In this document: piece after piece, positions 29,051 to 63,716 of the stretch | How the letters are laid out: the number at the start of each line of letters is the position of its first letter | Position numbering within the stretch: the stretch's first letter is position 1 | Assembly (NCBI RefSeq): GCF_000143415.4 | Contig: NW_003314266.1 | Coordinates: forward strand, 3,813,674-3,877,673 | Source of the DNA: Selaginella moellendorffii | Lineage: Eukaryota; Plantae; Lycopodiophyta | Reading direction: 5' to 3' | DNA: 64,000 nucleotides | Notes under the pieces: generated by a model | What the model saw: the letters and a program-made list of their open reading frames with translations, nothing else | What the model was told of the DNA's origin: nothing | Database searches by the model: none | Program-made: the position numbers and the translations under genes

Positions 29051-29122
29051 CCAATCCGACGGCTACCAAAATCCCACTATGCTAATATTAGTATACAGTA
29101 TCGTAGCTGTACACTTGGCCTT

Positions 29123-29126
<4 letters not shown>

Positions 29127-29178
<52 letters not shown>
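29127..29178. repeat. Compound microsatellite (CA)n(TA)n(TG)n between two head-to-head C elements
   Basis: Read directly from the sequence. Confidence 0.95.
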
Positions 29179-29181
<3 letters not shown>

Positions 29182-29585: not shown

Positions 29586-32423
29586 ATGGCAGGTCAACAA
29601 TTTCCTCCTTTGACTCTGGAGCAGCAGTTGGTACAATTGCTTGATGCTATGCGCTTGCAATTGAACAACCAAACTCAGTTGATAGTGGCATTCACGGCAT
29701 GTGGTACAACTCCTCTTGCTCTTGGTGCCAATCCTCACATTCGGCTGGAGTTCTTTTGCGGGAATCCTAGAGATGATGTGTACCATTGGTTCAATCACTT
29801 CATGGTGATTGCCATATATCATTCTTGGGATGATGCTCGACATTTGCGTGAGTTTCCCACGTGTCTCCAAGGGACGGCGTTGCAGTGGTACAATGGTTTG
29901 AGCACAGCCACTTGTGGGGATTGGAGTGTTCTCCCGAACGTCTTCAAATGCACCTTCGGACATGCCAATGACTGTGATGATGCCTTCCAACAATTGCATC
30001 GTCTTTGCCAAGGGCCATCTGAGTCGGTGATGCAATTTGGCGTTCGTTTCCGAAGTCTTTTGCTTCGTGTGGAGCCAAATATGTCGGAGCGGATTAAGCT
30101 AGGAATGTTGTGGCCAGCACTTCGTTAAGATCTTGTCGGACTTGTGCATGCACTTGCTCTCACCACCCTTGACAATGCTTTTCTCTTAGCACAACATTAT
30201 GAGGTGTCGCCTCTTCCACTTCTTGTTGCACGTCCTTTAGCTTATAGGTGATGGTCCTGTTCCAATGGAGGTTGATGCTGCTGCTGCTTGAGTCCAAGGA
30301 CAAGGGTGAGGACGTGGTCGTGGCCGTGATGTTCACTACTGGGCGTGTGATGAAGTTGGTCATACTTATCGGTGTTGTTGGTGTTTTCTGGATTGGCGAC
30401 CTCCATTTCCTGGGTGGAAACCTTGGCATCAGCAACATCATGTTGGTGCTGCTGCAGTGGATGGTTTGGACACCGAGATACATCTGGGAAACAAGGAGTC
30501 GCGTGAGCAATGGAGAGACCTTGCGCGAATAAATCAGTGACCCCTCCATCTTTCTTTTGGGAGTATCATCAAGGGGTTCACTTGGCACCGGTTCATCCAG
30601 TGTTTACTTTTCAAGCTCGTTTTTATAACAAGAGGTCTCCTATTATTCTCTCTGTGTTGGTTGATACAGGTTTGAGTTTATCTTCTATTGCTCGACTTGT
30701 TGCCACACGTTGCCATCTACACTTGTGTCGTGCGGCGGAACTAGTTTTTATTCTTTATAGCAACGGCCGTACACATGCATGTGCACAGAATGAGGTGGAC
30801 CTGGTTGTGCGTGTGGGCGATCTCGAGCTTGAGTTGCAATCATTGCGGGTGGTGCCGAGTCAAGCTTTTGACCTCATTCTTAGTATGGATTGGTTGCAAT
30901 GCGATCATGCCAAGTGTGATTTTGAGGCTTCTCCCCCTTGTCTCATACTTCCTTATGTTTCATCCATTTGTCTCACTTCTGTACCTCTTTGTCCCTCTAC
31001 TTTTACCTCTGCTTGCATTACTTTTGTTTCCCCATTATTTCCTCCTATGTTTCCATCTTGTTCTGCTCTTCCCTTTTCTGATCCCTCTAACGATCTTTGT
31101 GTTGCAGCGGTGGACCGGCTCATAAAGGAGTATTCTGATCTTTTTTGAATTTGACCTTGGGGCCAAGATTGCCATACGTCATCCAATTCCAACCGGGGAT
31201 GCTCGTCCAATCAAGGTTCCCGTTCATCGTTGGTCACCCAAGGAGATCAAGATTTTACGTGCAAATGTCAAGGAGATGTTGAAGAAGGGTGTTATTCGAA
31301 AGTTGTGGAGTCCTTGGGTATATGAACCTCATTTTATGACGAAGCCTGATGGGAGTATTCGTTTCTACATTGACTATCATCCGTTAAACGAAGTGACAAT
31401 CCCAGATGTGTACCCTCTTCCTCACACTGCTGATCTCTTGGATCATCTGGGGCGAAGTCGTTGGTTCACCAAACTAAATTTTGCTTCTGGGTATTGGCCG
31501 ATGGCCGAAGAAGATATTCCTAAGACTGCTTTTTATACACCATTTGGTTTGTACGAGTTCTTGGTGATGCCGTTTGGTTTAAACAATGCTCCAGAAACTT
31601 TTCAGCAGATGATGGATGAGGTTAGTTGTGATATGCCAGAGGTGACTACTGACTTCATTGATGATGTCTTGATTCACTCGGAGGGGACATGGGCAGAGCA
31701 CATTCGTGATGTGTGTAAAGTGTTGGATCAGCTACGAGATGTTGGTTTAAAGCTGAAGCGGTCAAAGTGCGTGTTTGGGTCCAAGGACACAACTTATCTT
31801 GGGTACCGTATTTCTCATGAGGGTTTGCAAGTTGATCTTGACAAACTTGTGATTGTTCTAAAGTTCCTTACTCCAAAGTGTGTGAATGATGTGCAGCGCT
31901 TCTTGGGCAAAGTGTAGTATCTCGATCGTTTTGTGGATCATCTTTCTGATCGCACTGCACCGTTGCGAGTGCTGCTGAGTCATCAACATCATCTTTCATC
32001 TGGTCTCCGGATTGTGAGCAGGCGTTCGAGGATCTCAAAGAGCTATTGACGACTCCTCCGGTTTTGGCATATCCTAACTACACTCGACCTTTTATTTTGC
32101 ACGTGGATGCTTTTGCCATTGGTCTTGGAGGTGTGTTAATGCAAGAGAGCTTGAGTGTGCTTGGTTAGCGCCATCCCATTGTGTATATAATCCGTATATT
32201 ACAACTAGCAGAAATGAACTACTCCACAACAGAGAAGGAGTGTTTAGCAGTAGTTTAGGTTTCGAGAAATTTCATACATATCTACATGGTTCTCGGACGT
32301 TACTTAAAGGTGATCATGCTGCTGTTACTTCATTATTGAAGCGGAAGAACCTGGTTGGTCGTATTGTTCAATGAGCTTTAAAGCTTCAGATATATGATTT
32401 TGATATTGTTCATCACTCAGGGA
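29586..32423 (+). pseudogene. gag-pol: C1 gag-PR-RT-RNase H, multiple stops and frameshifts
   Basis: Gag LQGTALQWY; protease LVDTG; RT MPFGL and FIDD. Confidence 0.88.
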
Positions 32424-32824
32424 TGTAAGGAACCAACTCGCCGAAGTGTCGTAGGCTAAAGGAACCCCGAAAGCATGACCAAAATGACAAAGAGTTCATC
32501 GGATGGGACCAAGTCGAAGATTGAGTCCAAGACCGACTCTAGGACCGAGTTCGAGATCGGGTCCGGAATCGAGTCCAAGACCGACTCGGGGACCAAGTTC
32601 GAGTCCGAGTTCGAGACCGAGTTCGAGACGGAGTCCGAGATCCGAAATCGGGTCCGAGACCGAGTCCGAGGTCGAGACCGAGTCCGAGGTCGAGTCCGAG
32701 GTCGGGTCCGAGATCGGGTCCGAGATCGAGTCCGAGATCGAGTCCGAAACCGAATCCGAAGTCGGATCCGAAATCGGGTTCGAGATTGAGCTAGAGACTA
32801 AGTCCAAATACTAATACGGGTCAA

Positions 32825-32893
32825 GGGGTGAAAGCCCAAAGCGTGCGTCTCCTAGGGGGGGGGGGCTGCAGGGGGTTCCAAAAGTATAGTAGG
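32825..32893 (+). promoter_or_regulatory. Putative LTR promoter core shared by A, B and E LTRs
   Basis: GGGTGAAAGCCCAAAGCG...CCAAAAGTATAGTAGGG is conserved between otherwise dissimilar A and B LTRs (compare 36170-36240), directly downstream of the GAGTCC array; TATA-like. Confidence 0.5.
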
Positions 32894-33648
32894 GATAGTG
32901 AGGTCCAGGAACCAGTTTTGAAGGGACTCTCCAGTTGGGCTTCCAAACCGACTTGAGGTTGCGACTGGGACCGAGGGGCCTTGGGTGGGAGTGAGCATGG
33001 ACTTGGCTGGTGCCGGAGGGGCCATCCAAGGAAGTGCTCAAGAGCAGCTCCCACTCCCGAAAGGGAAACCGATTGCGGTGCTCCTGGCTCATGTGGAGTG
33101 GTGCCCCACTTGAGTACCATGCGGCTCATTGGTCCTCGCCCTTCCTAGGGGCTTGGGCCTTCCTTCGGGATGGAAGTGGGGGGCTAGAGGTACCCATACC
33201 GGGCCGCTAGGCCACGGTGTTTCGCCCCGGCGTCCCGAAGCAAGTGTTGCACTCAAGACTTGGGATTTAGAGGGTCCCATGATCAAGTCTTGTGGTACCA
33301 AAGGATGTTAGGAACCTGGAAGCTTGGTGTGTTTGGCTGTTTGTGCTTGCGGGGAGTGTAGCCAAACCTTAAGTCCAGTCTAACCCGGGGAGGGGGATTG
33401 GGAGTGATTTGGGAATCCGTGGATGGATGGCTAACACTCCGTTGCTCGTGCAGTGAGTAGCTGAGACCAAGTAGGAGCTGGTACCATAGGCGAGAACCTT
33501 GGCAAGGGAACTTAGCAAAAGCCAAGGCAGTGTTGGACAGATAGTCGAGGTAAGCTGGCAAATTGGAAAGGAAAAATTTGTGGCTTACAATTTGGTATCG
33601 GAGCCTTTATCTCAGTTCTAGCGAAGGATAGAGGCGGATTGCTGGGAG

Positions 33649-35334
33649 ATGGCAAGGGCAGGGCGTAAGCGAACCCAGGCGGAGACGGAACCTCCGCCAG
33701 AGCTGGAGCCTCCGGTTGAACAAGAGGCTATGGATGAGGAATCCTTGCATGAGGAGGACTCCAGTGAGGAAACTTCCAAACAGGAGTCCGGTGGCGAGGT
33801 TCGGTCGTCCAAGGCTCGATTGGACGTGCTAGAAGGACAGTTGGCACAGACCAATGCCCTGCTGGAGACTCTCGTACGCAAGTTAAAGCATGACGAGAAG
33901 CAGAAGAAAAAGCGAAAGACTGCGGATGCTGGCAGTGCAGAAGGTGCGGACCCTTCGGCAGGGACTGAGGCAAAACCAGACAAGGTCGAACAGACCGAAG
34001 TGGAATCAGTCCCTCAGGCAGTTCCCAAGTACAAACCAAAGCCCCCACCAGTGTTCAAGGGAGTGAACGACTATAAGGTTGTGGAGGATTGGTTTTACGA
34101 TATGGAGGACTACTTCCGAGCGTTGCAGTTACCGAGCTTGGAGAAGGTCCCATGTGCAAAACCATACTTGGCAGATAATGCCAAGTCTTGGTGGAGAACA
34201 ACGGAGGCCAACGAAGGACCGGTGGCCACCTGGGACATGATGAAGGCGAGGATCCGCGCGACATACGTTCCTCCGAATGCCACTCTACATCTGAGAGATG
34301 AGTTGAGTAGGCTGAAGCAGACTGGAACCATCCAGGAATATGTGAATGGGTTCATGGCAAAGAGGATACTTGTCACGGACATGGGGGATATGGATGCGTT
34401 CCATGCCTTTATATCAGGTTTGCAAACCTGGGCTCGCGGTGAGGTGATGCGCTGGAACCCGACCAACTACAAGGAAGCGTTGGATGCGGCCATCAAGGTG
34501 CATTTCAACGATAACCTGCGAAAGGGGAACACGACGGGGTCGGGATCCACGTTTCACAAAGGGGCGAAACCGAGGGGAACATATAGCAAGGGGAAATTCA
34601 AGAAGAGTTTCTCTAAGAATGAGTCCTCGGGGTTTCGGAAAGGCAAATCCGGTGGCCAGCGAGCGAGTACGTGGGGAAGTCAAGCGAAAAGAGACAAACC
34701 CACGGATAAGAAGGTCAAGTCGTATAGCAGCGTGGGCAACAACGTATGCTACAACTGCGGCGAAGCAGGACACTTCTCGAGGGAATGTCCCTACCCGAAG
34801 AAGGCCAGAGCCAATATGGCCATCAAGTCGGGTGAAGTCCAAACTGAGGTATGTGATCCAGTCCCTAACTCAAAGTTACTCATTACACGAGCAACTTTGG
34901 TAGAGAGTCGTTCGCGACATCTACTAGCCCTCCGAGGGAAGCTCGGAGGTAGCTTTGTTAAGATCCTTATTGACACGGGTGCTTCGGATAATTTTGTGGC
35001 TGCAGACATAGTCCGGCAAGCCGGACTAACGGTGCAACGGCTAGGCGAACCAAGGACTATAGAGTTTGTTCAGGGTAGCCAAAGCACCGATGAGGTACTT
35101 CGACAAGCGAGAGTCGAAGTGGGGACATGGAAAGTGGACATGGATTTCACCGTCTTGGACATGGCGGGATTTGACGTGATCTTCGGAATGGATTGGTTTA
35201 ACCGGTTCGTGGTAGCCCTGCATGGACAAGGTAGGAACCTTGTGGTATTGGCGAATGCCCAAGGAAGAAGATCTAGGGTGGAGGCCCAGGATCTAAAGGT
35301 AGGGCAAAGCAAGGCCAAAGAGTCATGCTTAAAC
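33649..35334 (+). CDS. gag-pol: A2 gag-protease portion, interrupted by B2
   Basis: Open from ATG 33649; CCHC and LIDTGA motifs; frame continues at 43055 after B2. Confidence 0.92.
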
Positions 35335-38300
35335 TATGAGACACAAAATCCCTAGGCCCCAAAGTGGAGCCGGAAAGGGTGCCACGTGGTAGTGGCTGAA
35401 GCGAGAGCTAAACGAGCGTAACACGTTTGGACCAAAAGCTCCGACTCGAAAAGTCAAGAGCGGGAGTGGAACTCCCAACGAAGTGCTCAAGGAACGAGCA
35501 CGAAGCGAGCAAAAAGCGAGGCTCCAAAAAGGGACCCAAAAGGACCAACACATGACACGTGGAAGTGTCCGAGATGGACTCGAGTTGGAGTCCGAAGTGG
35601 AGTCCGAGATGGACCCGAGTTGGAGTCCGAAGTGGAGTCCGAGATGGACCCGAGTTGGAGTCTGAAGTGGAGTCCGAGATGGACCCAAGTTGGAGTCCGA
35701 AGCGGAGTCCGAGATGGAGTCCAAGATGGAGTCCAAGATGGAGTCCGAAGTGGAGTCCGAGATGGAGTCCGAAGTGGAGTCCGAGGTGGACCCGAGATGG
35801 ACCCGAGTTGGAGTCCGAGGTGGACCCGAGATGGACCCGAAATGGAGTCCGAGATGGAGTCCGAGATGGACCCGAGATGGAGTCCGAGATGGAGTCCGAG
35901 ATGGACCCGAAATGGAGTCCGAGATGGACCCGAGATGGAGTCCGAGATGGACCCAAGATGGAGTCCGAGATGGAGTCCGAGATGGAGTCCGAAGTCGAGA
36001 CCGAGACCGGGACCGAGACCGAGACCGAGACCGAGATCGGGACCGAGACCGAGACCGAGGCCGAGGCCAAGACCGAGCCCGAGCCCGAGTTCGAGTCCGA
36101 GTCCGAGTTCGAGTTCGAGTCCGAGTCCGAGTCCGAGTCCGAGTCCGAGTCCGAGTCCGGAGCCTGAGAGGGTGAAAGCCCAAAGCGTTTGTCTCCCAGA
36201 CCCTGGGGGGTTTGGTGAGCTCCAAAAGTATAGTAGGGGGAGGACTGCAGTGGAGCCAGTTTGGCCAGGAAAGGCCAGTTTGGCCCAGGAAGGCCGGACC
36301 CAGTGTTGGGTGATGAGCTGCCCACTGGGAAGTCCAAGACTAGAGTGAACACAGACCGACAAGCGGGGTAGCTTGGTGAAGTGTTCAAGAGCCGGCTCTA
36401 GTTCCCCCGGGAGATCGACTGGCCAATGCTCCCAGTCCAAGTGTGGGTGGCACTACCTACTTGGATACTGGTGTGGCTCAACGGAACCCGCTCTAAGCCC
36501 ATGGCTAGAGCACCCAAGGGCAGAAGGCGAGGAGAGTACCTAGGTGGCTCGCGTAAGGCCACGGTGTTCCGAAATGTTGTCCCAAAGGCCCAGACTGTGG
36601 AAAGGAAGAGGAGCAGTCCTCTGGGGTAGTGACCAAGGACACAGTCGTGTGGTGAGGAAGTCCCAAAGGACCGTGGGACTTAGTGGTCAGGCCTGTGGGT
36701 CTCGATCCAGTGGCAGTGTTGGCAAACACGGCCAGGGGCAACAAGGGACTTAGTGGGGACTGACAGAGGGATATTGGGGAAGGCTATTCCCCTTGTCGGT
36801 GGGCATCCTAAGGATGCTAAGGAGTGGATCTGAGATGACCACTCACGGATGGTTTGCCTAGTCTTGGAGAGCTAAGACGGTGATGCAAGTGGTATTGGAC
36901 TACCAGTGTGGCAAAGGTGATTGGGCATGGCCTTAGTGTAATGGGCTGCTATGTCGGTGGTACCTTTGAGTGTCGGTCATGGGATCGGACACGTGGAGCA
37001 CTTGGACCAAGTGCAAATGTTGAGTGGCATGGATGCCATTCTCGGGGCTAGCAAGTCCCAAGTCCTGGATTGGACTTATGGAGGTTGTGAATGAGACTCC
37101 TCCAAGTGGTCAGAGGTGTGGTTAAGTGACTAAAGTAGAATGGAAAATTTAGTCGCTTACAATTTGGTATCGGAGCTGTTCCTTAGTCCGACTTTTATTG
37201 GTGCTCAAGTATATCACCACTAGTGTTGGCATCGGAAGGTCCGAGGAGTGGGCCTATCCTTGAGGAGTAGCAAGTCGGGAAGACATGGCTCTCCATTACA
37301 GTTCATGTGTGAACTTGTAGACGAGGTGGTGGATAGAAAAGGGCCAATAATGGAACGACTTTGGGATCTTGGGAACAATGCAAGGTTTTCCTCATTGAGT
37401 TGAGGATGTGATCCGGATGAGCATTTGTCTCAGCAAATTGGCTAAGGTTGTTGTGGTAAACAACTAAAGTTGGGATCACAGGAAAGATAAAGACTCCAAA
37501 ACAATAAAGGAGTCACAAGATTATCCTCATATAGTTGAGGTTGGTGCTCATGAATGTGAGACCAGAGGTAATGACCGTGGGAGGTCAAATACGGAAGAGG
37601 ACTCAAATCCTTGAAATGGTAGCCGGGGCTACCTTTAATAAATGCTGGAACAACCCATGGAGTTGGGGGGTGTACTTAGAGATGAGTGGTATTCTCATCG
37701 CATGGACAAGTAGTCCTAAGGGGCAAAAGTTGCCCCCAGAGAACAAAATCAAGTGTCGGAGTAACACTTGTGAAAATAATCCTTTTGAGTAGGATAGGAA
37801 TGCAAGAAGTGTATTCCAGTGAGCTAGTGCCTCACAAGTAGGACCTTAAGGGTCTGTGGATTAACCAAGTCCAAAACTACTGATGACTCAAGTAGAGTCA
37901 AGGGATGGTCCTAAAAGGACTGATGGAAGCATTTGGACTGAGGTGTGTTGTACCCCACAAAGGATGGGGGGGGATCATAGGATCCAAGGATGAGAACAGA
38001 GGGTATCTCATCGATGGCAAAATGTGCCATGCTAAAGTTATGGGAAAGGTGTTCTCAGAAGAAAACAACTTTGACACAAAGTTGTGTGTGACCTCTATAG
38101 TGCAGTGCTAACGGATGGTTGGCATGAGAAAGAGCGGTGTTGGTCTTGGCAAAGACATAAACACGAAGGGGAAGTGTCATAGAGGTAGGCTCGTGGAGCC
38201 GATGGTGTGGAGACACCAAATATGCCAAGGTGTGATACCTTGAGGCTATGTTGGTGGGTTCATGAGAACCCCTTGCCAAAAGAATCCCAATGGAAATGGG

Positions 38301-41300
38301 AATGGCATAGCCTAAGCTGCAGAACATGCAGTTGGAGTGTGGTGACCCAGATAATGATGGAGGTGTGAAAGCACCAAATAATGAGTTGTAGGACTTGACA
38401 ACTATGAGGCAACTAAGCAAGAGGTGCAAAATAACTGGTTGAACGGGTAGAAGGTAGCTACCCAAGACTTCTTAATAGCATAGGGAAGTCGGATACACCC
38501 TTATGGGGGATAAGTTGCTTGTGTTGCGATATAGTAAGTCAATGTCATAAAAGGAAATACTCATTGTCAAGAAAGCCATCATTGGGACACCCGAACACTC
38601 TAGAACACCAGAAGGTGGTGTTTGATGTCGCGAGGGCAATGGATAAAGCCCAAGGGACTAAGTCCCTAGCGAATGATGGATAGAAGGTGCTATCCAAATG
38701 TCCAAGGTTGCGGAGACAGGAGAGGACTGTCTACCCGAGTTAGACAAAGCCAAAAATGGAATTTTGGCAAGGCTAGTGATGGGCATGTAAAGGCCCATAA
38801 GCAACAATGTAATCCCAGTGTGTGGGATTATAAGGTGAGCATACCCGGATTGAGGAACCACTCCTTGGGCTATTGGGTAGGTTCATCCCTAAGAATACTT
38901 GCTAAGGCATGATAGAAAGTGCAAAGCTATCCTCTTGGTCTGGAGGAGAATAACCAAAGGAACCATATGGGGCCAAAAGACAAGTAGTATTGGGATGGAA
39001 CTGAGCCATAGAAATCAAAAGGCATATCCCACAATGGTTATGCAAGTTGGGAGTGGAGAATCAAGAGGGTGCTCGAGGATGTTGTTGCTAGTAACCGTGA
39101 GGCCATAGAGAGTCGAAAATATGGAATTGTCCATGTTAGACTATATGGCAACTATAAAGCTTGCGAAAAGGGAGGCCTTAGCAAGCTGAGGGACAGAGTT
39201 CCTTCAAGGTTCCCAAAGACGATTCTAGGTAGCTTAGTACCTAGAAAGGCCAAGTGTAAATGGTTCATGGAACACGCGAAATCAGAGTGGCGCAGCAGAA
39301 GCGTGGTCTTGAAGCTTGCCATGAGGCAAGGCTATCAAGGTTAGAGAAGTAGTACCCGAGTGTTCAAAGAGAGGGCTTTGAACGAAAGTCGATGGTCAAG
39401 GACTTTCACGCTTATGCATGAACCATGTTACAGTGGTCGGAGGACTTGCCAAGCGAGATTGGCATGTCGGGGGAACAAATACCCTAATTGAAGGTGATAA
39501 CTTCAAAAAGGGTGGGCCATGGGGCTGAGCATGGAGGAGTCCATGCATGATCACAGACATGTCAAGTGAGAGGACTTGGCAGTGCAGAGGAACTAGGTTC
39601 CTAAGCTGTGATCTGTAGCGCGCTTTAAATATAAATTGGTGCACCGGCGTGGGGAGTCACGCCAGGCATCCGGTGTGATGCCATCCGTAGATGCATATAC
39701 GGAGGTTGGGTTCGAGTCCCGACCCTCTAGTGCTTGGGTTCGAGTCCCAAATCACTAGGGCGTGGTGATGGTTTGGAATATGAGGACACTCATTTTTCGG
39801 TGGTCATGGACTCTCAATGAGGAGATTGGCTTGGGCACACCGCCAAGCGGGGGATGCCCCGGAGTCGTGATGCACGGTTAGATTGCTTAGTGTGAAAGCT
39901 TAGCATATCTAACTTGAACGCTTTGGTGCAAGTGGCACCAAGGACGTGGTGAATGAGATGGGGACACCCAGTCTCAGTTGCTATGGACCCTTGGCCGGAA
40001 GGGCTGGCTTGGGCGCACCGCCAAGTGTGGGGGATGCCCCCGGGGTCGTAGTTAACAAGTTAAAGGTCTGGAAGACCTAGTACCTATTGGCAAACCTGTT
40101 AAGGTGCCGAGGTGAGATCACTAGGTGATCTTGTGGCTAAATAAAGACAAGGTCCTTGTTTGGGTGAAGGAATAAGGTTCCTAGTTCAAAGTGTTGATTT
40201 GAACTATTGATGATGGTGTGGCTTGGTCAAGGTGACCAAGTGGGAAAAGCACCTTATGGAAATGAGCTATGTCATTGCGATGGCATAATGTGTCCAAGGA
40301 AAGTAGTCTCTAAAGAGACCCATAGGAGGGTCACAAAGTTGGGCCGTAGATAGAGCCCACAACAGAAGAGGCTAAAAGAGACTTACTAGGGGTGAACACC
40401 CTAGTCTTGGCAAAGCAGAGCCTTTGCTATGGAATCCAGAAGAATACCTCAAGGAGGGAGGTAGAGATTCGATGTTGCTTGGTGCAACAATCAACGGATA
40501 GGAGCAAAAGATGAGTTGCCAAGATAGGGCCGTGGAATCCCTTGGAGGGAATCCAAGTGAAAAAGTTAGGCGAGGAACACTAATGTGTTGGACGCTAACA
40601 AGTTGCGGGAAAGGAAATGTGTTTCCAAGGAGGGATTCTGAATTGCTCCGATTTGGCGAAAGTGGAAGCTCCAAGGGAGGGAGCGGTAAGGTAGCCAAAT
40701 GATAGGGCCATGGACAGCCCTAGCACAAAGTATGATAAATGGAACTTAGTGCCCAAGGTGGCACGAAATAGAAGAGAAGATGGTGATGCCCTCAAGTAAT
40801 GAACTTCCTATGATGGGGAAGTGGAGTTGCACAATCTGTGCAATGCAAGGTGTTGGAGACACCTAGGAAATTGACTTCCAAAAAGTCAAAAGAGTAAAAG
40901 TTCCAAAGTGCAAAGGTTATAGCGCTGGAAAGTGAAACCACTTGAGAACGAGTAGTGGGATCGAGTTAGAGAAGGTGTCTCTAATAGGTTTAGTGAGAAC
41001 TAAACCAATAAAAGGAGAGAACCACCACAGGTGGTCAAATGAGCCTCTAAGTTGGAGAGGCTATGCTCCTTAAAGGATGGACAAGGCATGGTGAGCTTTT
41101 GGTGTCAAACTATAAACAAAGATTGGCTAGGTGCCAAGGATGGAAATGGTAACACGTGTGGGTGTTACTTTATGAAAGGGTTTACCGTTCGATGAGGACA
41201 TCGAACTTCGTCTATGGGTGGTGGAGTTGTGAGACACAAAATCCCTAGGCCCCAAAGTGGAGCCGGAAAGGGTGCCACGTGGTAGTGGCTGAAGCGAGAG

Positions 41301-43049
41301 CTAAACGAGCGTAACACGTTTGGACCAAAAGCTCCGACTCGAAAAGTCAAGAGCAGGAGTGGAACTCCCAACGAAGTGCTCAAGGAACGAGCACGAAGCG
41401 AGCAAAAAGCGAGGCTCCAAAAAGGGACCCAAAAGGACCAACACATGACACGTGGAAGTGTCCGAGATGGACTCGAGTTGGAGTCCGAAGTGGAGTCTGA
41501 GATGGACCCGAGTTGGAGTCCGAAGTGGAGTCCGAGATGGACCCGAGTTGGAGTCTAAAGTGGAGTCCGAGATGGACCCAAGTTGGAGTCCGAAGCGGAG
41601 TCCGAGATGGAGTCCAAGATGGAGTCCAAGATGGAGTCCGAAGTGGAGTCCGAGATGGAGTCCGAAGTGGAGTCCGAGGTGGACCCGAGATGGACCCGAG
41701 TTGGAGTCCGAGGTGGACCCGAGATGGACCCGAAATGGAGTCCGAGATGGAGTCCGAGATGGACCCGAAATGGAGTCCGAGATGGACCCGAGATGGAGTC
41801 CGAGATGGACCCAAGATGGAGTCCGAGATGGAGTCCGAGATGCAGTCCGAAGTCGAGACCGAGACCGGGACCGAGACCGAGACCGAGACCGAGATCGGGA
41901 CCGAGACCGAGACCGAGGCCGAGGCCAAGACCGAGCCCGAGCCCGAGTTCGAGTCCGAGTCCGAGTCCGAGTCCGAGTCCGAGTCCGAGTCTAAGTCCGA
42001 GTCCAAGTCCGAGTCCGAGTCCGAGTCCGAGTCCGAGTCCGAGTCCGGAGCCTGAGAGGGTGAAAGCCCAAAGCGTTCGTCTCCCAGACCCTGGGGGGTT
42101 TGGTGAGCTCCAAAAGTATAGTAGGGGGAGGACTGCAGTGGAGCCAGTTTGGCCAGGAGAGGCCAGTTTGGCCCAGGAAGGCCGGACCCAGTGTTGGGTG
42201 ATGAGCTGCCCACTGGGAAGTCCAAGACTAGAGTGAACACAGACCGACAAGCGGGGTAGCTTGGTGAAGTGTTCAAGAGCCGGCTCTAGTTCCCCCGGGA
42301 GATCGACTGGCCGATGCTCCCAGTCCAAGTGTGGGTGGCACTACCTACTTGGATACTGGTGTGGCTCAACAGAACCCGCTCTAAGCCCATGGCTAGAGCA
42401 CCCAAGGGCAGAAGGCGAGGAGAGTACCTAGGTGGCTCGCGTAAGGCCACGGTGTTCCGAAATGTTGTCCCAAAGGCCCAGACTGTGGAAAGGAAGAGGA
42501 GCAGTCCTCTGGGGTAGTGACCAAGGACACAGTCGTGTGGTGAGGAAGTCCCAAAGGACCGTGGGACTTAGTGGTCAGGCCTGTGGGTCTCGATCCAGTG
42601 GCAGTGTTGGCAAACACGGCCAGGGGCAACAAGGGACTTAGTGGGGACTGACAGAGGGATATTGGGGAAGGCTATTCCCCTTGTCGGTGGGCATCCTAAG
42701 GATGCTAAGGAGTGGATTTGAGATGACCACTCACGGATGGTTTGCCTAGTCTTGGAGAGCTAAGACGGTGATGCAAGTGGTATTGGACTACCAGTGTGGC
42801 AAAGGTGATTGGGCATGGCCTTAGTGTAATGGGCTACTATGTCGGTGGTACCTTTGAGTGTCGGTCATGGGATCGGACACGTGGAGCACTTGGACCAAGT
42901 GCAAATGTTGAGTGGCATGGATGCCATTCTCGGGGCTAGCAAGTCCCAAGTCCTGGATTGGACTTATGGAGGTTGTGAATGAGACTCCTCCAAGTGGTCA
43001 GAGGTGTGGTTAAGTGACTAAAGTAGAATGGAAAATTTAGTCGCTTACA
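35335..43049 (+). mobile_element. Non-autonomous LARD-like element B2
   Basis: LTRs at 35335-37161 (TG mutated to TA) and 41228-43049; TSD TAAAC at 35330-35334 and 43050-43054; PBS at 37165-37176; PPT at 41213-41227; no long ORF inside. Confidence 0.95.
39646..40057 (+). other. Structured cis-RNA cassette in B2
   Basis: GGCGTGG-GGAG-TCACGCC hairpin, two GGGTTCGAGTCCC hairpins, and modules at 39757-39875 and 39941-40057. Confidence 0.65.
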
Positions 43050-43054
43050 TAAAC

Positions 43055-46000
43055 CTGGTGTCCACGAGAGGACAACTCACTAAAGGAACTAAGGCAGCCT
43101 TTTTGTGCTTACTCTCGGTGAAGAGTGACAAAAAGACAAGAACGGAAGAAGTACCTTTAGTTATCCAGCAGGTGCTGGACCAATTCCAGGATACCATGCT
43201 GGAGGAGTTACCGGCGGGGTTGCCCCCCGCACGACCGATAGAACATAAGATTGAGCTGGTCAAGGGTGCTGAGGCGGTGGTTCGTCCACCCTATCAATTG
43301 AACAAAAAAGAACTCAAGGAGCTCAAAAGCCAACTAGAGGAGTTGGTGGACAAAGGGTATGTTAGGTTGAGCAAGTCGCCATATGGGGTGCCGGTGCTAT
43401 TTGTGAAAAAGAAAGATGGATCTATGCGCATGTGCATAGACTACCGGTTGCTCAACAAGTATACCAAGAAGAACAAGTACCCTTTGCCAAGGATCGAGGA
43501 CCTGTTCGATAGGTTGGGAAAGGCAAAATACTTCTCGAGGATTGACCTAAGGTCAGGATACTACCAGATCAGGGTAGCTGAGGAAGATGTCGAGAAGACA
43601 ACCTGTCGAACGAGGTATGGGAGCTTTGAGTTTCTGGTGATGCCCTTTGGGCTGTGCAATGCGCCGGCAACGTTTTCGGCGTTGATGAACCACATCTTTA
43701 TACCCTATCTGGATCACTTCGTGGTCGTCTATATCGACGATATCCTGATCTATAGCGAGACGCTAGAGGAGCATGCCGAACACTTAGCGAAGGTGTTTGA
43801 GAAACTAAGGGAACACAAACTGTATGCTAAAGAGAGCAAATGTGACTTTGCTCAACAAGAGGTAAAGTTTCTCGGGCATGTGGTGGGCCAGGACAGGCTC
43901 AAGGTGGACCCGGAGAAGGTCCAAGCGATCCAGGAATGGGAGCGGCCTTCGAATGTACATGAGTTGAGGGCGTTCTTGGGGCTATGCAACTACTATCGAA
44001 AGTTTATCATACACTATTCGAGAGTAGCCCTACCCTTAACGGACCAAACAGGAAAAGGGAAGATGGTATGGACAGCGGAATGCGAGGCAGCATTCGTCCA
44101 CCTCAAAGGGAAGTTGAGGAAGGCTCCGGTGTTGGCATTACCAGATTTTGGTAAGGACTTTGAGGTAGACACGGATGCTTCGGACTTTGCGTTGGGCGCA
44201 ATTTTGAAGCAAGACAACCATCCAATAGCGTTCTTCTCGAAGAAGTTGGACAAGGCTCAAAGGAAGTGGCCTGCCCACGAGAAGGAATTGTTTGCGGTGG
44301 TCAAGGCGCTCAAGGAGTGGCGACACTACCTTGGGAGACACTTCAAGGTTTACACGGACAATGTGGCAACGAAACACTTCTTGTCACAGCCCGACCTGAG
44401 AGGGAAACAAGGTTGGTGGGCCAATGCCTTGGCCGAGTTTGATTGCGAGATTCTGTACAAGCCTGGGAAGAGCAACATCGTGGCAGATGCGCTAAGTCGA
44501 AAAGCGAGCTTGAGGTTGGCGATATCCAGCGCAATAGCAACCTTCTGGGACGATGTGCGGACAGCATATGAGAATGATGGTCTAGCACAAGAAGTGTTGT
44601 TGAGGAATCTGGAGGCGCGGGAAGCTCACCAGAGAGATGAGCTGCCAACGGAAGAGAAAACGGGCTATGCGGAACGCAACGGACTCATTTATTACAAGCA
44701 ACGAGGGTATATGTTCCAGAAGGGGGACTAAGGAAGGTAGCCTTAGAAGAGTGTCATGACGGACCTCTTGCGGGACACGGCGGAGTGCCCAAGACGATGG
44801 GCTTACTCAAGAGGAAGTACCATTGGCTAGATATGGCTAAGGACGTCCAAGACTATGTAAAGACATGTCCAACATGTCAGCAAGTCAAAGCCGTGACTAA
44901 GGCTAGTGGGGGCTTGTTGCAAAGCATCCCAATTCCAGATCGTCCGTGGAAATGTCTTACGATGGACTTCATCACGGGACTACCCCCAAGCGAGGGGTTC
45001 GATGCGATATTCGTGGTGGTGGACCGATTTTCAAAGATGGCACATTTCATACCCACCACAACGGATGTGGATGCGGAAGGTGTGGCGAAGCTGTTCTTCG
45101 AACAAGTGGTTCGAGTGCGGGGAAGGCCGGAAGAGATTATCTCAGATCGAGATAAGATCTTCACCAGTAGGTTCTGGAGGACACTCCTAGAACAGTATCG
45201 CACCAAGTTGAAATTCAGCACGGCCTATCACCCACAGACAGGTAATGGGTATTGAGTCAAGATTGATGGCACTAACACTTCTTGACAGACGGACAAACGG
45301 AAAGGGTGAATAGGCAGCTGGAGGATTATTTGCGATGCTATGTCTCGGGAGACCAGACCGACTGGGTAAGTCATTTGGGACTTGCGGAAATGTGTTATAA
45401 CAACTCACCACATTCGAGCATCGGGGTGAGTCCATGGGAAGTCATCAATGGGCGAGCTATTGAAGGTCCTGTGGAACTCGGCGTGGCCGAGTATCATGGA
45501 GAGTTACCCGCAGTGGAGGCATTCACGGCGAAAAGACTCAACATTTGGAATCTAGTGAGGGATTCCTTGGAACGGGCTCAACAAAGGCAAACTAAGTACG
45601 CAAACCAAAAGCGTCGAGATGTGGAGTTCCAAGCTGGGGAGAAGGTGTGGCTGAACACCAAGAACCTCAGGCTACCAAGTGGGATCAGCCGGAAGTTGAC
45701 CCAAAGGTAAAAATGCATATATTCTTGTAAATGAATAAATCTTGAGTTCCTTAAGCAGGTTCGCAGGGCCTTACGAGATTGAGGCTCGAATCAGTAAAGT
45801 GGCTTACCGTCTCCGACTTCCTCGAGAGATGGGGAAGATGCATCCCGTGTTCCACGTGAACTTACTCAAGCCGTATTTTGAGGATCCGCTTCGCAAGGAC
45901 CAAGTAAGACCTTTACCTGAGGTTATCCAAGGGGAGGAGGAATACGAAGTCGAGGCCATCCTCAATGCGCGCAAGAGCAAGCGACAAGGACGCGAGGTGA

Positions 46001-46140
46001 GAGAGTTCCATGTGAAGTGGAAAGGATTTCCACACTGCGAAGCAACATGGGAACCGGAGGAGAACCTAGCGAACGCGCGAGATCTAGTGGAGGAATTTCT
46101 GCATGGCAGAACTCTATGTACTTATGCAAAGTTCAATTAA
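43055..46140 (+). pseudogene. pol: A2 RT-RNase H-integrase-chromodomain; 1-nt frameshift near 44700; introns 45242-45288 and 45707-45758
   Basis: Same motifs as A1; TACAAGCAACG versus TACAAGCAAACG in A1. Confidence 0.9.
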
Positions 46141-46180
46141 AAGTATCAATTTGAGAAGTTGAGCAATGGCATATGTTAGG

Positions 46181-46547
46181 ACCCGAAGGCGCGCCGAAGG
46201 TAAGCTAATTAGCATGGGTTAGCTAGGTCGACCAGGCGTAGGGAGCTACGCCCGACTCCCTGCGGGGATGTCGAAACCGTAGACGTATTCTACGGAGGTT
46301 GGGTTCGAGTCCCAACCCCCTAGTAAAGCAAGGCTGGGTTCAAGTCCCGACCCCATATTAGGGCGTGGTGAGGGGAGGAGTATAGGGACACCTATATTCC
46401 GTTGTCATGAGCTCTTGGCCGGGGAGGCTAACTTAGGCACACCGCTAAGTGGGGGGATGCCCCCGGAGACATGGTCAACAAGTCGTAGGATAAAAAAAAA
46501 AGAGACGTTCGATGTGGGCATCGAACTTCTTCTATGGGTGGTGGAGT
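46181..46547 (+). other. Structured 3' UTR cassette of family A (also 13799-14165 minus and ~47765-48128)
   Basis: GGAG hairpin 46235-46252; T-loop hairpins 46297-46317 and 46332-46352; module 46360-46479; pre-PPT hairpin 46507-46526. Confidence 0.65.
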
Positions 46548-48128
46548 TGTAAGGAACCAACTCGCCGAGGTGTCGTAGGCTAAAGGATGCGATATTCGTG
46601 GTGGTGGATCGATTTTCGAAGATGGCACATTTCATACCCACCATAATGGAAGTGGATGCGGAAGGTGTGGCGAAGCTGTTCTTTGAACAAGTGGTTCGAG
46701 TGCGGGGAAGGCCAGAAGAGATTATCTCAGATCGATATAAGATCTTCACTAGTAGGTTCTGGAGGACCCTCCTGGAACAGTATCGCACCAAGTTGAAATT
46801 CAGCACAGCCTATCACCCACAGACAGGTATGGGGTATTAAGTCAAGTTTGGTGGTCCTAACACTTCTTAACAGACGGACAAACGGAAAGGGTGAATAGGC
46901 AGCTGGAGGATTATTTGCGATGCTATGTCTCGGGAGACCAGACCGATTGGGTAAGTCATTTGGGACTTGCAGAAATGTGTTATAACAACTCACCACATTC
47001 GAGTATCGGGGTGAGTCCATGGGAAATCATCAATGGGCGAGTTATTGAAGGTCCTGTGGAACTCGGCGTGGCCGAGTATCATGGAGAGTTACCCGCAGTG
47101 GAGGCATTCACGGCGGAAAGACTCAACATTTGGAATCTAGTGAGGGATTCCTTGGAACGGGCTCAGCAAAGGCAAACCAAGTACGCGAACCTAAAGCGCC
47201 GGGACGTAGATTTCCAAGCTGGGGAGAAGGTGTGGCTGAACACCAAGAACCTCAGGCTACCAAGTGGGATCAGCCGAAAGTTGACCCAAAGGTAAAAATG
47301 CATGTATTCCTGCAAATGAATTGATCTTGAGTTCCTTAAGCAGGTTCGCGGGGCCTTACGAGATTGAGGCACGAATCGGTAAAGTGGCTTACCGACTCCG
47401 ACTTCCTCGAGAAATGGGGAAGATGCACCCAGTGTTCCATGTGAACTTACTCAAGCCGTACTTTGAGGATCCGCTTCGCAAGGACCAAGTAAGACCTTTA
47501 CCTGAGGTTATCCAAGGGGAAAAGGAATACGAAGTCGAGGCCATCCTCAATGCGCGCAAGAGCAAGCGACAAGGACGCGAGGTGAGAGAGTTCCATGTGA
47601 AGTGGAAAGGATTTCTACACTGCGAAGCAACATGGGAACCGGAGGAGAACCTAGCGAACGCGCGAGATCTAGTGGAGGAATTTCTGCAAGGCAGAACTCT
47701 ATGTACTTATGCAAAGTTCAATTAAAAATATATATTTGCAAAGTTGAGCAAGTGGCATATGTTGGGACCCGAAGGCGCGCCGAAGGTAAGCTAATTAGCA
47801 TGGGTTAGCTAGGTCGACCAGGCGTAGGGAGCTACGCCCGACTCCCTGCGGGGATGTCGAATCCGTAGACGTATTCTACGGAGGTTGGGTTCGAGTCCCA
47901 ACCCCCTAGTAAAGCAAGGCTGGGTTCAAGTCCCGACCCTATACTAGGGCGTGGTGAGGTGAGGAGTATAGGGACACCTATACTCCGTTGTCATGGGCTC
48001 TTGGCCGGGGAGGCTAACTTAGGCACACCGCTAAGTGGGGGGATGCCCCCGGAGACATGGTCAACAAGTCGTAGGATAAAACGAGACGTTCGATGTGGGC
48101 ATCGAACTTCTTCTATGGGTGGTGGAGT
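46548..48128 (+). repeat. 40-nt LTR stub followed by a second, diverged copy of integrase core, chromodomain, 3' UTR and PPT (introns 46827-46873 and 47292-47343)
   Basis: TGTAAGG...GCTAAAGGA (46548-46587) joins via GA to GATGCGATATTC, equivalent to 45001. Confidence 0.92.
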
Positions 48129-49281
48129 TGTAAGGAACCAACTCGCCGAGGTGTCGTAGGCTAAAGGAACCCCGAAAGCATGACCAAAATGACAAAGAGT
48201 TCATCGGATGGGACCAAGTCGAAGATCGAGTCCAAGACCGACTCTAGGACCGAGTTCGAGATCGGGTCCGGAATCGAGTCCAAGACCGACTCGGGGACCG
48301 AGTTCGAGTCCGAGTTCAAGACCGAGTTCGAGACGGAGTCCGAGATCCGAAATCGGGTCCGAGACCGAGTCCGAGGTCGAGTCCGAGGTCGGGTCCGAGA
48401 TCGGGTCCGAGATCGAGTCCGAGATCGAGTCCGAAACCGAATCCGAAGTCGGATCCGAAATCGGGTCCGAGATCGAGCCAGAGACTAAGTCCAAATACTA
48501 ATACGGGTCAAGGGGTGAAAGCCCAAAGCGTGCGTCTCCCAGGGGGGGGGGGGGGGGCTGCAGGGGGTTCCAAAAGTATAGTAGGGATAGTGAGGTCCAG
48601 AAACCAGTTTTGAAGGGACTCTCCAGGTTGGCTTCCAAACCGACTTGAGGTTGAGACTGGGACCGAGGGGCCTTGGGTGGGAGTGAGCATGGACTTGGCT
48701 GGTGCCGGAGGGGCCATCCAAGGAAGTGCTCAAGAGCAGCTCCCACTCCCGAAAGGGAAACCGATTACGGTGCTCCCGGCTCATGTGGAGTGGTGCCCCA
48801 CTTGAGTACCATGCGGCTCATTGGTCCTCGCCCTTCCTAGGGGCTTGGGCCTTCCTTCGGGATGGAAGTGGGGGGCCAGAGGTACCCATACCGGGCCGCT
48901 AGGCCACGGTGTTTCGCCCCGGCGTCCCGAAGCAAGTGTTGCACTCAAGACTTGGGATTTAGAGGGTCCCATGATCAAGTCTTGTGGTACCAAAGAATGT
49001 TAGGAACCTGGAAGCTTGGTGTGCTTGGCTGTTTGTGCTTGCGGGGAGTGTAGCCGAACCTTAAGTCTAGTCTAACCCGGGGAGGGGGATTGGGAGTGAT
49101 TTGGGAATCCGTGGATGGATGGCTAACACTCCGTTGCTCATGCAGTGAGTAGCTGAGACCAAGTAGGAGCTGGTACCATAGGCGAGAACCTTGGCAAGGG
49201 AACTTAGCAAAAGCCAAGGCAGTGTTGGACGGATAGTCGAGGTAAGCTGGCAAATTGGAAAGGAAAAATTTGTGGCTTACA

Positions 49282-50822
49282 AGGGAGTTCTATGGCTGAT
49301 GCTGATGCCCTTTCTCGAGCTCCTCTTCCTTGTCCATTCTCTTCTCATGTTTTTGACAAGCCTGTTATTCTAGCCTTTGTGGATTTTCTAGACGAGGATT
49401 CTGTGCTGTTGGTAGTTGCTGTACTTGATGTTCTGTGTGCACAAGGGGCAAAGCAAGATCTACCTTCTTTTGATGAGGTTCGCGAGGCTAAAAATATTGA
49501 ACCGTGGATTCAAAGGCTTCGAGATGGGTTTGAGAATCCTGCATCACTTGCTGATGGCTTGCATTTCCAGCATTTACATTCTCAATATCGCCTTGAAGAC
49601 GGCCTTATTTATTTTGTGGGGATAAATCCTGATGATCATTTACGGCTGGTGGTGCCTTCTATCGTTATTCCGCGGTTTCTCCATGCCTACCATGATTCTT
49701 CTGTTCTAGGTGGGCATATGGGACATTGTCGTGTAATGGAGAAGCTGCACAAGTCTTTCTATTAGCCGAAGATGCGACGTGATATTATCCAGTATGTGCG
49801 TAGTTGCGTTTGGTGCCAAGCTCGTAATACTCCCCCTCAAGTTGCGAAATGACGGTTGGAGTCAATTGTAGTTTCCCATCCATTTGAGTTGGTAGTGTTT
49901 GATCTTATGGGACCTTTTCCACGGTCGACTGTTAGCAATGAGTATGTTATTATTGCTTTTGACTACTTGACTTGTTGGGTGGAAGTTGGTGCTCTTGCTA
50001 GTGCCTTTGCAACTGCTGTTGGATACTTCCTCCTCAATCAAGTGGTGTTCCAACATTCTTGTCTAGAGCGGATTCTTTCGGATAATGGTCCCGCATTTAT
50101 GGCTGAGGCATTTCATGTTTTAACGTCTTGGCTGGGGATACGCCACACTTTCACGAGTGCTTATCATCCACAATCAGATGGTTTGGTGAAACGGCTCGTT
50201 CGGACATTCAAGGGGATGATTGCGAAGTATGTGAACTTTCAGCATTCGGATTGAGATAGTTATTTGCCGTCTCTTCGGTATGCATATGTCACAGGGGTGC
50301 AGAGTTCTGTTGGTTCTTCACCATATAAACTTTTATATGGTCATGATCCAATATTACCAACAGAACTAAGTTTATCTTCGCGATTGCCACGAGTTACGGA
50401 TGCTAGGTCGTGGGATCAGTATTTGACGAGCATTCTTCCACTTTTCTGAGCAGAGTTTGCCGAACACTTAGGCCGTATACAAGTGGGACAACAACGGCAG
50501 TACAACTCCCATCATCGTCCACCTGTGGAGTACAAAGCGGATGATTTGGTGTTTCCATTTTCCCCATCTTACGGTATGTGGTTTATCTAAGGGGCTCCTT
50601 GTGCAGTGGAAAGGACCGTATCGAGTGTTGCAGCAAGTTGGACCACAAGTTTATGAGGTTCGGCATGACGTTCAGCAGGCTGATCCTCCAAAGATTGTGC
50701 ATGTGCAGTGGTTGAAATGCTTTATACAAAGGGATCAAGAGCAATTAATACCACCTATAGATCTGCCGATGCCTCCTCCTGACGTTCCTCCAGATCCCAG
50801 CCCATCTACAAGAGAACCCTAA
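49282..50822 (+). pseudogene. pol: C1 RNase H end and integrase, degenerate, no introns evident
   Basis: ADALSR, DLMGPF, SDNG, contiguous AYHPQSDGLV, WKGPY. Confidence 0.88.
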
Positions 50823-51059
50823 TGGTCTTCCATTATTCCGAGAGGAGGGGATGATGTGAGGGCCAAGTGTAAGGCTACGATGCCATATACTAATATTAGC
50901 GTAGTGGGATTTTGGTAGCCGTTGGATTGGTTTCAATCCGGACCACTTGCTCCTGTATAAGCTAGGGTTTTTGGGCTAATTGAGATGCACATTTTTGTAT
51001 TCCCTTTCCATATTCCAAGCACTCACACACACACACAGAAATATATATATATATGACAG

Positions 51060-61649: not shown

Positions 61650-63716
61650 TTAATATGAAGTCGAGTTTTGATATCTCGAGAGCAAAGGTTCTCTGCAATC
61701 CATTTTAGCATCCAGCAAATTTACCACCTGAGAAAGTTAAGAAACTTGCATAAGAAATGCCATTGATGGAGATTTCTAAGTTCTTACTCGTTCCATGTTG
61801 GGCCTTTCATCTGGCGCTCTTCGCACACACAAAAATGCTGTGTACATCATTCTTCTCATCTCATGGGCATTGAGAATTGTCAAATTTGGATCCACCAGCT
61901 CATGAGTAGCACCGGTTTTCTCAAGAAAATGTGCCTGTTTAACAAGTTATCATCGATTATCACCTGTGAAAGATCCATACCCAATGTACCAAGCTTTGCT
62001 CTTTTGATGTAAGTGTGAAATCAATGGGAGCTCTTCCAGAAATTAGCTCTAAGAGCACCACTCCAAATGCATGAACATCCGTTTTTTCATTGCCATATCC
62101 ATGAACCATGTACTCTGGAGCCATATAACTACGAGCATTCACACATTTACAGTAAGCGAGTTTGTAAAGAAAATCTTACCCAAAAGTTCCAACGAGTCCA
62201 CTGGTTGCCTCGTTACTCCATCTTGCAAAGCCAAAATCTGAGATTTGTGCATCAAAGTCATGAGAGAGCAATATGTTGGAACTCTTCACATCTTGATGGA
62301 TTATATGATGAGGAGCAAGATTATGAAGGTGGTGAAGGCCTCTTCCAGCTCCAAGTGCTACTTTTTGTCTCTTTTTCCAGCTTAATACCTTTCTTTTACC
62401 TGGAAAACATATTATAAAAATGAAAAAAAGAAAAGGAAATAACTGACCATAAAGATGATCTTGAAGGCTCCCATTTTGCAAAAACTTGTAGACCAGCAGC
62501 CTGTGTGTTCCTTCAGAACAGAAGCCAATAAGCGATACCAGGTTCTGGTGACGAATGTAAGATATGAACTTGATTTCTCTTGAGAATTCTCGTTGACCGG
62601 AGTTGCTATTTAGCAAATGTTTCACCGCAACAATGGTTCCATGTTGAAGAGTTGCCTTGTAAACATGAGAACAACCCCCACTTCCAACCAAGTTTTCTGG
62701 AAAGATAAAAATAGTTTTGGAAAATATCGAATATAAATAATTTGGTTACCCATTGCAAAGTGTCCAGTGGCTTGGAGCAACTCCTCGTATGAGAATTCTT
62801 TGACAGATACATTTTCTGATTTTGGATTTCTTGAGAGAGTTCGGTCTTTAAGCACCGTGGTGGGTGAGCCTGATTCTGAGGACCATGATAAATCAGAACT
62901 TATATCAGCTGAGAAACTCAAGACTGTTTCCATAGAACATGAGCTTGATGATGCTCCGCTACTCCGTCTTGAGTTTTGGCTCTCTTCCTTTTCCAACTTA
63001 TTCTCCTTTTGAAGTAAGGATTTTAGTGTGTGATCTTTGCCTTTAAAACAAAATCATTAACAAGAGAAGCAAACGATATCTATACTCACAATTAGCACAA
63101 CCAGATTTGACTTGCATCACTTTTCCCTTGCGAACGACCATGACAGAACAGTAGGAAGGTAAATTTCTTACACAAGTTTTTCCAATTTTGCTCATGGTCC
63201 TGAACAAAGAACCACAGATTTTTATGATGTAAACCGAAAACAAACCTGGAAATAAATTGCCTTTGCGAATTCCCAAGAACAACCAATGTTGCTTTGATTT
63301 TTCTGGCCTCTTGAACGATTCCATTGCAAATATCTGAGCTCTGGACTACTACTGATGAAACAGTCACCTGTTTTTTACAAATGCATCAATAGAAATTCAC
63401 ATGTAAAACTCAAACCTTTGGAGTTCTCAAATGAATGTCAAGCAAAGCTTGACAAATGGCCCTGTCGAAAGATAATCCAGCTTGATACCTTTGCAAGTCC
63501 TCTGTAGTAGCTTTGAAGAAATAAGAGGCACTTGAAACTTGAGTGAAATTATTTACCTGAGCTTTGAAACACATGCAAGAAAGTGATGTGATCTTTCCTC
63601 TGTGCAAACTTGGATAACAAGAGCTTGAGAATTCCATGAATCTCGCCAGTTTCCTTAACAGCCACCAAGATTCTAGCACTCGAATTGAGAAACTGCTTCA
63701 ACCTTTTAGATCCCAT
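61650..63716 (-). CDS. Host receptor-like cytoplasmic kinase with an N-terminal USP-like domain (RLCK-VI-like), 10 exons
   Basis: GT-AG introns at 63511-63556, 63368-63415, 63200-63245, 63041-63089, 62697-62749, 62400-62447, 62129-62179, 61935-61980 and 61728-61787 give one frame: ILVAV..ITFLHV..LVVLG (USP-like), [40 protein letters not shown]. Start codon and first acceptor are uncertain. Confidence 0.88.

Follow-up and report, generated by a model that had tools for sequence, protein, structure and literature searches.

A predicted cis-acting RNA structure common to an autonomous chromovirus and a non-coding LTR element of Selaginella moellendorffii

The window analysed here, a stretch of 64,000 nucleotides of Selaginella moellendorffii DNA with positions counted from its first letter, contains LTR elements that are nested in one another, as seen by self-comparison. 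Two families are described below, the autonomous element A and the non-coding element B. Copies of them in the window, together with the two introns of A, are as follows.

12651-20161, minus strand: A1, a full-length SM1-Galahad-like Ty3 chromovirus (7511 bp) flanked by a 5-bp target duplication; its LTRs are 99.3% identical
32424-49281, plus strand: A2, of the same family as A1, with B2 inserted within it and an internal duplication
35335-43049, plus strand: B2, a non-coding LTR element with 1.8-kb LTRs, a 4.07-kb interior, and a 5-bp target duplication
15058-15104, minus strand (A1), and 45242-45288 (A2): integrase intron 1, 47 nt, GT-AG
14588-14639, minus strand (A1), and 45707-45758 (A2): integrase intron 2, 52 nt, GT-AG

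A2 is inserted into an older third Ty3 element (26843-32423 and 49282-50860) that is partly duplicated and carries no module of the kind described below. The window also includes a near-perfect inverted repeat (29083-29222) with (CA)n(TA)n(TG)n at its centre and several sub-threshold Rfam miRNA matches, as well as a host gene for a receptor-like cytoplasmic kinase (RLCK; 61670-63900, minus strand), which carries an N-terminal extension and is interrupted by many introns of ~50-60 nt.

Element A codes for Gag, a CCHC knuckle, protease, RT, RNase H, and integrase, with the chromodomain located within a frame of 103 codons. If reading begins at the first ATG, 1295 codons precede the stop in intron 1; in A1 two premature stops occur before that point, and in A2 the first 562 codons are open. 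A2 contains a 1.59-kb internal tandem duplication (45001-46587 is repeated as 46586-48168). Judged from the sequence and from established knowledge of integrases, intron 1 splits the motif immediately ahead of the last catalytic glutamate. The closest single-frame relatives, among the best 120 of 7947 matches, are chromovirus polyproteins of ~1530 aa with 52-56% identity. According to its published description, SM1-Galahad, a Selaginella moellendorffii element of the Galadriel clade, is 7.5 kb long, with LTRs above 1 kb that include poly-G, a tRNA-Met PBS, a 1295-aa first frame, and a downstream 309-bp frame with a chromodomain (PMC3350952). Element A matches it in size, LTRs, PBS, 1295-aa ORF, and 309-bp chromodomain ORF, a comparison of dimensions between unaligned sequences. 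Section 2.1 of that description presents separate short ORFs, with no mention of an intron, a 3' RNA structure, or a non-coding partner, and the words 'intron' and 'non-autonomous' do not occur in its main text (PMC3350952). Both families are very abundant: one DNA run placed 31,440 contigs on a 1.8-kb part of A and 13,789 on a 431-nt part of B, although such depth does not equal copy number. A GTAAGC donor is present in the U5 of A just upstream of the PBS (~19077, minus strand; 33550) and is absent in B.

Large retrotransposon derivatives (LARDs), of which Sukkula and Dasheng are examples, are the class that element B looks like, as a partner of A. B has LTRs, a PBS, a PPT, a target duplication, and an interior of several kb without protein domains; the interior of B2 gave no tblastn match to the proteins of A at E 1, and its longest stop-free sense frame is 110 codons. 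Element B lacks the integrase introns and has no GTRAG donor near its PBS. The PBS and PPT of B2 are the same as those of A, and the LTRs of the two elements are homologous, R/U5 included. Internally, besides the short PBS, A and B match only in a 236-nt block at 71% identity, in a further module copy (m2), and in 42 nt at the PPT, with nothing in common detected by blastn in the leaders that follow the PBS. B resembles LARDs in its long LTRs, PBS, PPT, target duplication, and 4-kb non-coding interior that in most windows folds better than shuffles, and it differs from them by a discrete module that is common with the helper and doubled in the parasite. Across the interior (37162-41227) all 34 windows of 120 nt have z <=0, five of them <=-4.5. 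A 27-nt piece of B (39281-39307, also near 3067 on the minus strand) looks like the D-arm and 5' acceptor strand of tRNA-iMet, the primer, and it ends in GCGUGGU, which is identical to motif a. The U3 of the LTRs of A and B (35567-36160, 19820-20080) is made up of 6-nt units (GAGTCC, GAGTTC, GAGACC), some of which read as B-box-like GTTCGAGTCC.

The module that A and B have in common is present in eight copies in the window, three in A, two in each of two B elements, and one decayed.

46360-46479, plus strand: module of A2
47946-48065, plus strand: module of the third A copy, in A2, from the 1.59-kb internal duplication
47821-48065, plus strand: full block, second copy in A2, internal tandem duplication
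13867-13986, minus strand: module of A1
13867-14111, minus strand: full block of A1, between the integrase-chromodomain stop and the PPT
39646-39875, plus strand: full block of B2, upstream hairpins with module m1 (39757-39875)
39941-40056, plus strand: module m2 of B2, without upstream hairpins, 64 nt from m1
2292-2702, minus strand: block and m2 of B1, with module copies at about 2292-2591
21999-22112, minus strand: decayed m2-type copy, module at 21999-22101, loop Y partly deleted, 61 bits

A covariance model (R1) built from four sequences, two of A and two of B-m2, detected all eight copies, the held-out ones included, with 73 bits for m1 (rough E 1e-16) and 61 bits for the decayed copy, compared with 11.5 bits at the best other site. 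The module lies at 46360-46479 in A2 and in tandem in B, as the preliminary description of this DNA had it, and the decayed copy placed there at ~22010-22130 is also present, on the minus strand. The ~120-nt unit of that description proved too small, since the module is the 3' half of a block of ~245 nt, while its duplication in B does involve the 3' half only. Its statement that the surrounding sequence is unalignable fails on the 5' side, where an alignment of 236 nt at 71% joins A to B-m1; the LTRs and the 42 nt before the PPT align as well. In A1 the block lies 85 nt past the stop and 52 nt before the PPT, whereas in B it lies 1.1 kb before the PPT and is therefore not tied to plus-strand priming. 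Two ideas about the decayed copy were abandoned. Its apparent compensations, including that of its motif a with its LTR island, were rejected on account of saturation with C-to-T and G-to-A changes, and the idea that the decayed element had moved with m2 alone was dropped, as the upstream LTR piece is inverted.

The fold predicted for the module, given here for A2, consists of a leading invariant motif, a hairpin, and a four-way junction.

46364-46371, plus strand: motif a, invariant (CGUGGUGA), the same in 7/7 intact copies and with no variant at >=6% of depth in B
46377-46400, plus strand: hairpin W with a GACA tetraloop
46401-46479, plus strand: four-way junction of P2 and arms X, Y, and Z
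46401-46415 with 46465-46479, plus strand: closing stem P2
46416-46430, plus strand: arm X with a variable purine loop
46431-46450, plus strand: arm Y with loop GCACACCG at 46437-46444
46451-46464, plus strand: arm Z with a GAUG loop

Almost no linker bases separate P2, X, Y, and Z in the predicted junction. Single copies fold with z values of -1.3 to -3.5 (five copies). When seven copies were refolded without the leading motif, the full four-way junction was the minimum-energy fold in five of them; in B2-m2, W, P2, and X were kept and Y and Z paired differently. With the leading motif included, several copies favour other folds. The four stems named previously do exist, the changes between copies keep them paired, and their loops persist, although three details of that fold need to be amended. 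The loop of the first hairpin is a GACA tetraloop closed by a G-C pair rather than GGACAC. A fifth helix, X (46416-46430), which also covaries, had been missed, and it is this helix that turns the multibranch fold into a four-way junction. The last hairpin fits a GAUG tetraloop rather than an AUG triloop, since the change G39850A (94% of depth) is accompanied by C39859T (92%).

Comparison of the copies supports this arrangement. In an alignment of seven distinct rows, 12 of the 34 pairs show double changes, a count reached in 0/500 shuffles, and 95.8% of 236 cells pair, as against 34-48% for slid partners; these figures are tilted in favour of the structure, to which the alignment had been fitted, and the independent lineages number only three or four. 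None of the 500 shuffles, a control that ignores relatedness, reaches four of the five measures, whereas the fifth, 'further pair types', did not rise above the shuffles (474 of 500). Three other comparisons, those of pair types, loops, and genomic variants, are less affected by these limits. Among the paired cells G·U is far more frequent than A·C (33 vs 3, in 14 columns vs 3), the pattern that folding of the sense RNA would produce. The loops of W, Y, and Z are identical between three lineages at 15-16 of 16 positions, while the paired columns match at 43/66, 47/66, and 53/68.

Copies beyond the window were read as variants of one DNA run, at >=6% of depth, over B 39640-40070. Of the 34 variants found there, 13 are at unpaired and 21 at paired positions, and among the latter 15 keep the pair, three are compensated by a change in the partner, and three, at 7-10% of depth, break it. 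For the 19 paired-site transitions, 15 keep the pair (P 0.03 against a chance of 0.557); on a lenient count 18 keep or restore it (P 0.0002) and one breaks it. All eight paired-site variants above 40% of depth keep or restore pairing. No variant site (0/33) falls within the 56 motif positions (P 0.008), the motifs having been picked from copies of the same family. A cis-acting RNA common to A and B, as first proposed, is supported by the double changes, the G·U bias, and the compensated variants. The sequence comparisons support a selected sense-strand RNA structure that would be common to the autonomous A and the non-coding B, and for the module, the 3' half of the block, the predicted structure is well supported.

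The upstream half of the block is predicted to form a series of hairpins.

46235-46252, plus strand: hairpin of 7 bp with a GGAG tetraloop, one double change between A and B
46253-46273, plus strand: second hairpin, predicted in A and B, poorly alignable
46277-46295, plus strand: CCGUA/UACGG hairpin, with the loop palindrome ACGU in A and AUGCAU in B
46297-46317, plus strand: T-loop hairpin 1, 7 bp, loop UUCGAGU
46319-46362, plus strand: T-loop hairpin 2, 6-bp basal stem, loop UUCAAGU in A and UUCGAGU in B

This half folds with z values of -3.8 and -4.0, and in its 30 alignable pairs every one of the 120 cells is paired; the single double change (1/30) is not above shuffles. Two T-arms with a UUCRAN loop are found per block in 5/5 full blocks. 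T-loop hairpin 1 also fits the Pol III B-box consensus. The region could instead be mainly a DNA element or a relic, with tandem B-boxes recruiting TFIIIC in a captured piece derived from a tRNA or SINE and common to A and B by descent. Two perfect B-box-like T-loops would fit such an origin, as would the run 46277-46317, which resembles an anticodon arm, variable region, and T-arm, the 27-nt piece of B (39281-39307) that looks like the 5' end of the primer tRNA, and the weak covariation in the upstream half. On the other hand, the half of the block that is duplicated has no B-box, the strand-biased G·U pairs and compensated changes indicate RNA, and B has lost all coding relics yet kept the block. 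The block also contains no complete tRNA cloverleaf with D-arm and acceptor stem (ARAGORN found 0 genes, and no match to RF00005 was obtained in Rfam). An explanation mainly by DNA or descent seems unlikely.

Apart from the block, a small hairpin is found just before the PPT, at 41189-41207 in B (GAUG-AGGA-CAUC) and at 46506-46526 in A. It recurs in the distant chromoviruses L086-L091, L093, L097, and L112, and its strict pattern is matched by 8/80 metagenome loci. The latter are the loci kept of 507, and 60/80 of them have >=400 nt downstream.

The module was likewise sought among known RNAs and in other loci. A search of Rfam (4227 families) gave no match at the block up to E 10 except two weak unrelated ones, and the fold fits none of these families. 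No description of the module was found in the searched part of the literature outside subscription journals and Repbase. With R1, 0 matches were obtained in 90 other loci (320 kb), and no T-loop motif was seen within 700 nt downstream; this is a weak negative, since most of these loci are distant chromoviruses. A pattern scan of viral contigs gave five matches, all lacking the rest of the module; the related loci in such contigs number 79, mostly distant reverse-transcriptase relatives, and 10/79 were included in the R1 search.

A self-cleaving ribozyme of a new class had also been suggested, and this reading is left without support, as no Rfam family and no class core common to A and B was found. 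A compact multi-helix fold with invariant loops and a possible pseudoknot would be in keeping with such an activity. One probable-RNA contig, labelled with a second organism, starts 2 nt ahead of motif a (13984, minus strand) and extends into the LTR, although contigs cannot show RNA ends. Neither an Rfam ribozyme match at the module nor, by class-specific patterns, a sense-strand hammerhead, twister, pistol, hairpin, or HDV core common to A and B was detected, and a cut between pol and the PPT would presumably split or destroy the template. Ribozyme activity is very improbable.

The two invariant parts of the module could contact each other. GUGGUG of motif a is complementary to CACCGC of loop Y (6 bp, -9.6 kcal/mol as a free duplex). 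The CACC/GGTG pairing put forward earlier is therefore compatible with the sequences, with both strands invariant and covariation consequently uninformative. Much of the invariance of motif a and loop Y is explained by this mutual complementarity. A further partner for both is present in the LTRs.

33209-33221, plus strand: LTR island of 13 nt with the same sequence in both elements; motif a and loop Y are each complementary to it
36556, 42444, and 48901, plus strand, and 19418, 13031, and 5799, minus strand: further copies of the LTR island

The island lies ~330 nt past a TATA-like box common to A and B. Motif a (CGUGGU) and loop Y (ACACCG) might pair with the two halves of the island, GCCACGGUGU, and such a 5'-3' clamp would close the RNA for the start of reverse transcription, in the manner of CYC5/CYC3 of Ty1, with the local pseudoknot of motif a and loop Y as an alternative state. 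A and B have 12 identical LTR islands, one of which, this 13-mer, has 6-bp partners for both motifs, a coincidence seen in 17/20,000 shuffles (0.00085, in a test chosen after the pairing was seen). The predicted duplexes have energies of about -10 to -11 kcal/mol, and an A-to-G change in the loop of m2 leaves the pair as G·U. End-to-end contact is required in Ty1 and Ty3 (PMC4974528). Against the clamp, all three sequences are invariant and hence show no covariation, and the island takes part in a predicted local hairpin of A and, in part, of B. The clamp pairing was not selected in two-strand folding, a method that cannot model kissing loops, and related elements do without a 3' block. Pairing with the LTR island is a lead from the sequences, and the clamp as a whole seems unlikely.

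The introns of A bear on what the module may do. Both are present in 3/3 copies of the 3' end of A in the window, and no DNA joint skips either of them (15 shown of 16 joints). RNA of A is scarce, with nine reads of 9.2 million in one run and none in another; for B there are 0 reads and one probable-RNA contig. One 150-nt read of A appears to skip exactly intron 1, as judged from depths of 0.8, 0.9, 0.33, and 0.43 in 61-nt bins of one RNA run, which is below the limit of three reads, and another includes sequence of intron 2. With the introns kept in all three copies, no intron-free joint among the DNA joints shown, and one read that seems to be spliced, unspliced RNA is the likely template from which A is copied.

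Of the functions considered, we favour that of an export or stability signal that would let unspliced genomic RNA reach the cytoplasm for copying, to which, by analogy with other elements, we assign a probability of about 0.4. A would be copied from RNA still holding its introns, and such RNA would normally be degraded or fail to leave the nucleus. Together with the T-loops, the invariant loops GACA, CACCG, and GAUG might bind a host export factor or the Gag of the element itself, and B would keep and double the signal in competing for the same route. Non-coding ETn has retained the MTE of its partner MusD. Export or licensing was put first because, in other LTR elements, structured stretches found at this site serve as export signals. 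The MPMV CTE lies directly upstream of the PPT (PMC11379458), and the RTE of IAP and the MTE of MusD, the latter with a pseudoknot and kissing loops, are described as export elements (PMC12786077). As in these cases, a structured cis-RNA of an LTR element lies between the last ORF and the PPT, where it would assist the movement of unspliced RNA, and A is likely a host element replicating via intron-retaining RNA. The module differs from CTE, RTE, and MTE in having no sequence or Rfam similarity to them and in its tRNA-like T-loops and four-way junction. Its plant host also sets it apart, as plants are described as not using the TAP/NXF1 receptor (PMC12786077). Export is also at odds with B, the integrase introns of which are missing and which nevertheless doubles the module.

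The occurrence of the block in relatives of A is in keeping with a connection to the introns. In two clade relatives, L090 (91% to P0053) and L112 (76% to P0065), the integrase is uninterrupted and the PPT follows the stop within ~20 nt, so that the block is missing. Block and introns appear to occur together in the lineage of A, in a sample of two relatives at 54-55% protein identity.

Packaging comes close behind export as a possible, if somewhat less probable, function. The nucleocapsid proteins of HIV-1 and MLV bind at GGAG and GACG tetraloops, and packaging-type purine tetraloops are found in the HIV-1 SL3 and MLV GACG hairpins. The zinc-knuckle nucleocapsid of A might bind the purine tetraloops (GGAG, GACA) and the junction of the block, and B may have doubled the 3' half to win packaging in trans. 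The Gag of A does have a CCHC knuckle, and, once the short PBS and the 42 nt next to the PPT are set aside, the block is the only internal sequence common to A and B. Having no coding relic, B presumably must be packaged in trans, and this non-autonomous partner does keep the module. Packaging of Ty3 depends on UTRs or POL (PMC4974528). By contrast, known packaging and dimerisation signals are mostly at the 5' end (PMC11381356), while the block is in the 3' UTR; the homologous R/U5 of the A and B LTRs could hold the packaging signal instead, and both relatives, L090 and L112, lack a 3' UTR. The module is similar to retroviral and Ty packaging and cyclisation signals in its purine tetraloops on long stems and possible 5'-end pairing (PMC4974528, PMC11381356), and differs from them in its 3' location and four-way junction. 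The block cannot select unspliced over spliced RNA, since it is present in both alike. Export and packaging may be coupled, because Ty1 Gag itself promotes export (PMC12786077).

It may be speculated that these features combine, with a tRNA-mimicking block whose junction would alternate between two states, the local pseudoknot and a clamp in two parts on the 5' LTR, and would thereby single out full-length unspliced RNA to be exported and passed on to Gag. Such a block would have been gained together with the introns, and the parasite would have doubled the clamp so as to outcompete its helper. This composite is rather doubtful as a whole. Judged from sequence, the export signal that we favour, like the packaging signal next to it, would make the module a cis-element that works like those in the transport or packaging of other retroelements, yet is a member of no described family.

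In a 2025 review, the export of LTR retrotransposon RNA in plants is said not to have been studied directly (PMC12786077), and packaging sequences are imprecisely defined even for yeast Ty1 and Ty3 (PMC4974528). The 120-nt module with its defined predicted fold, its natural compensated variants, and its helper/parasite pair offers a testable handle on the export or packaging of plant retroelement RNA, and on how non-coding LARDs exploit their helpers.
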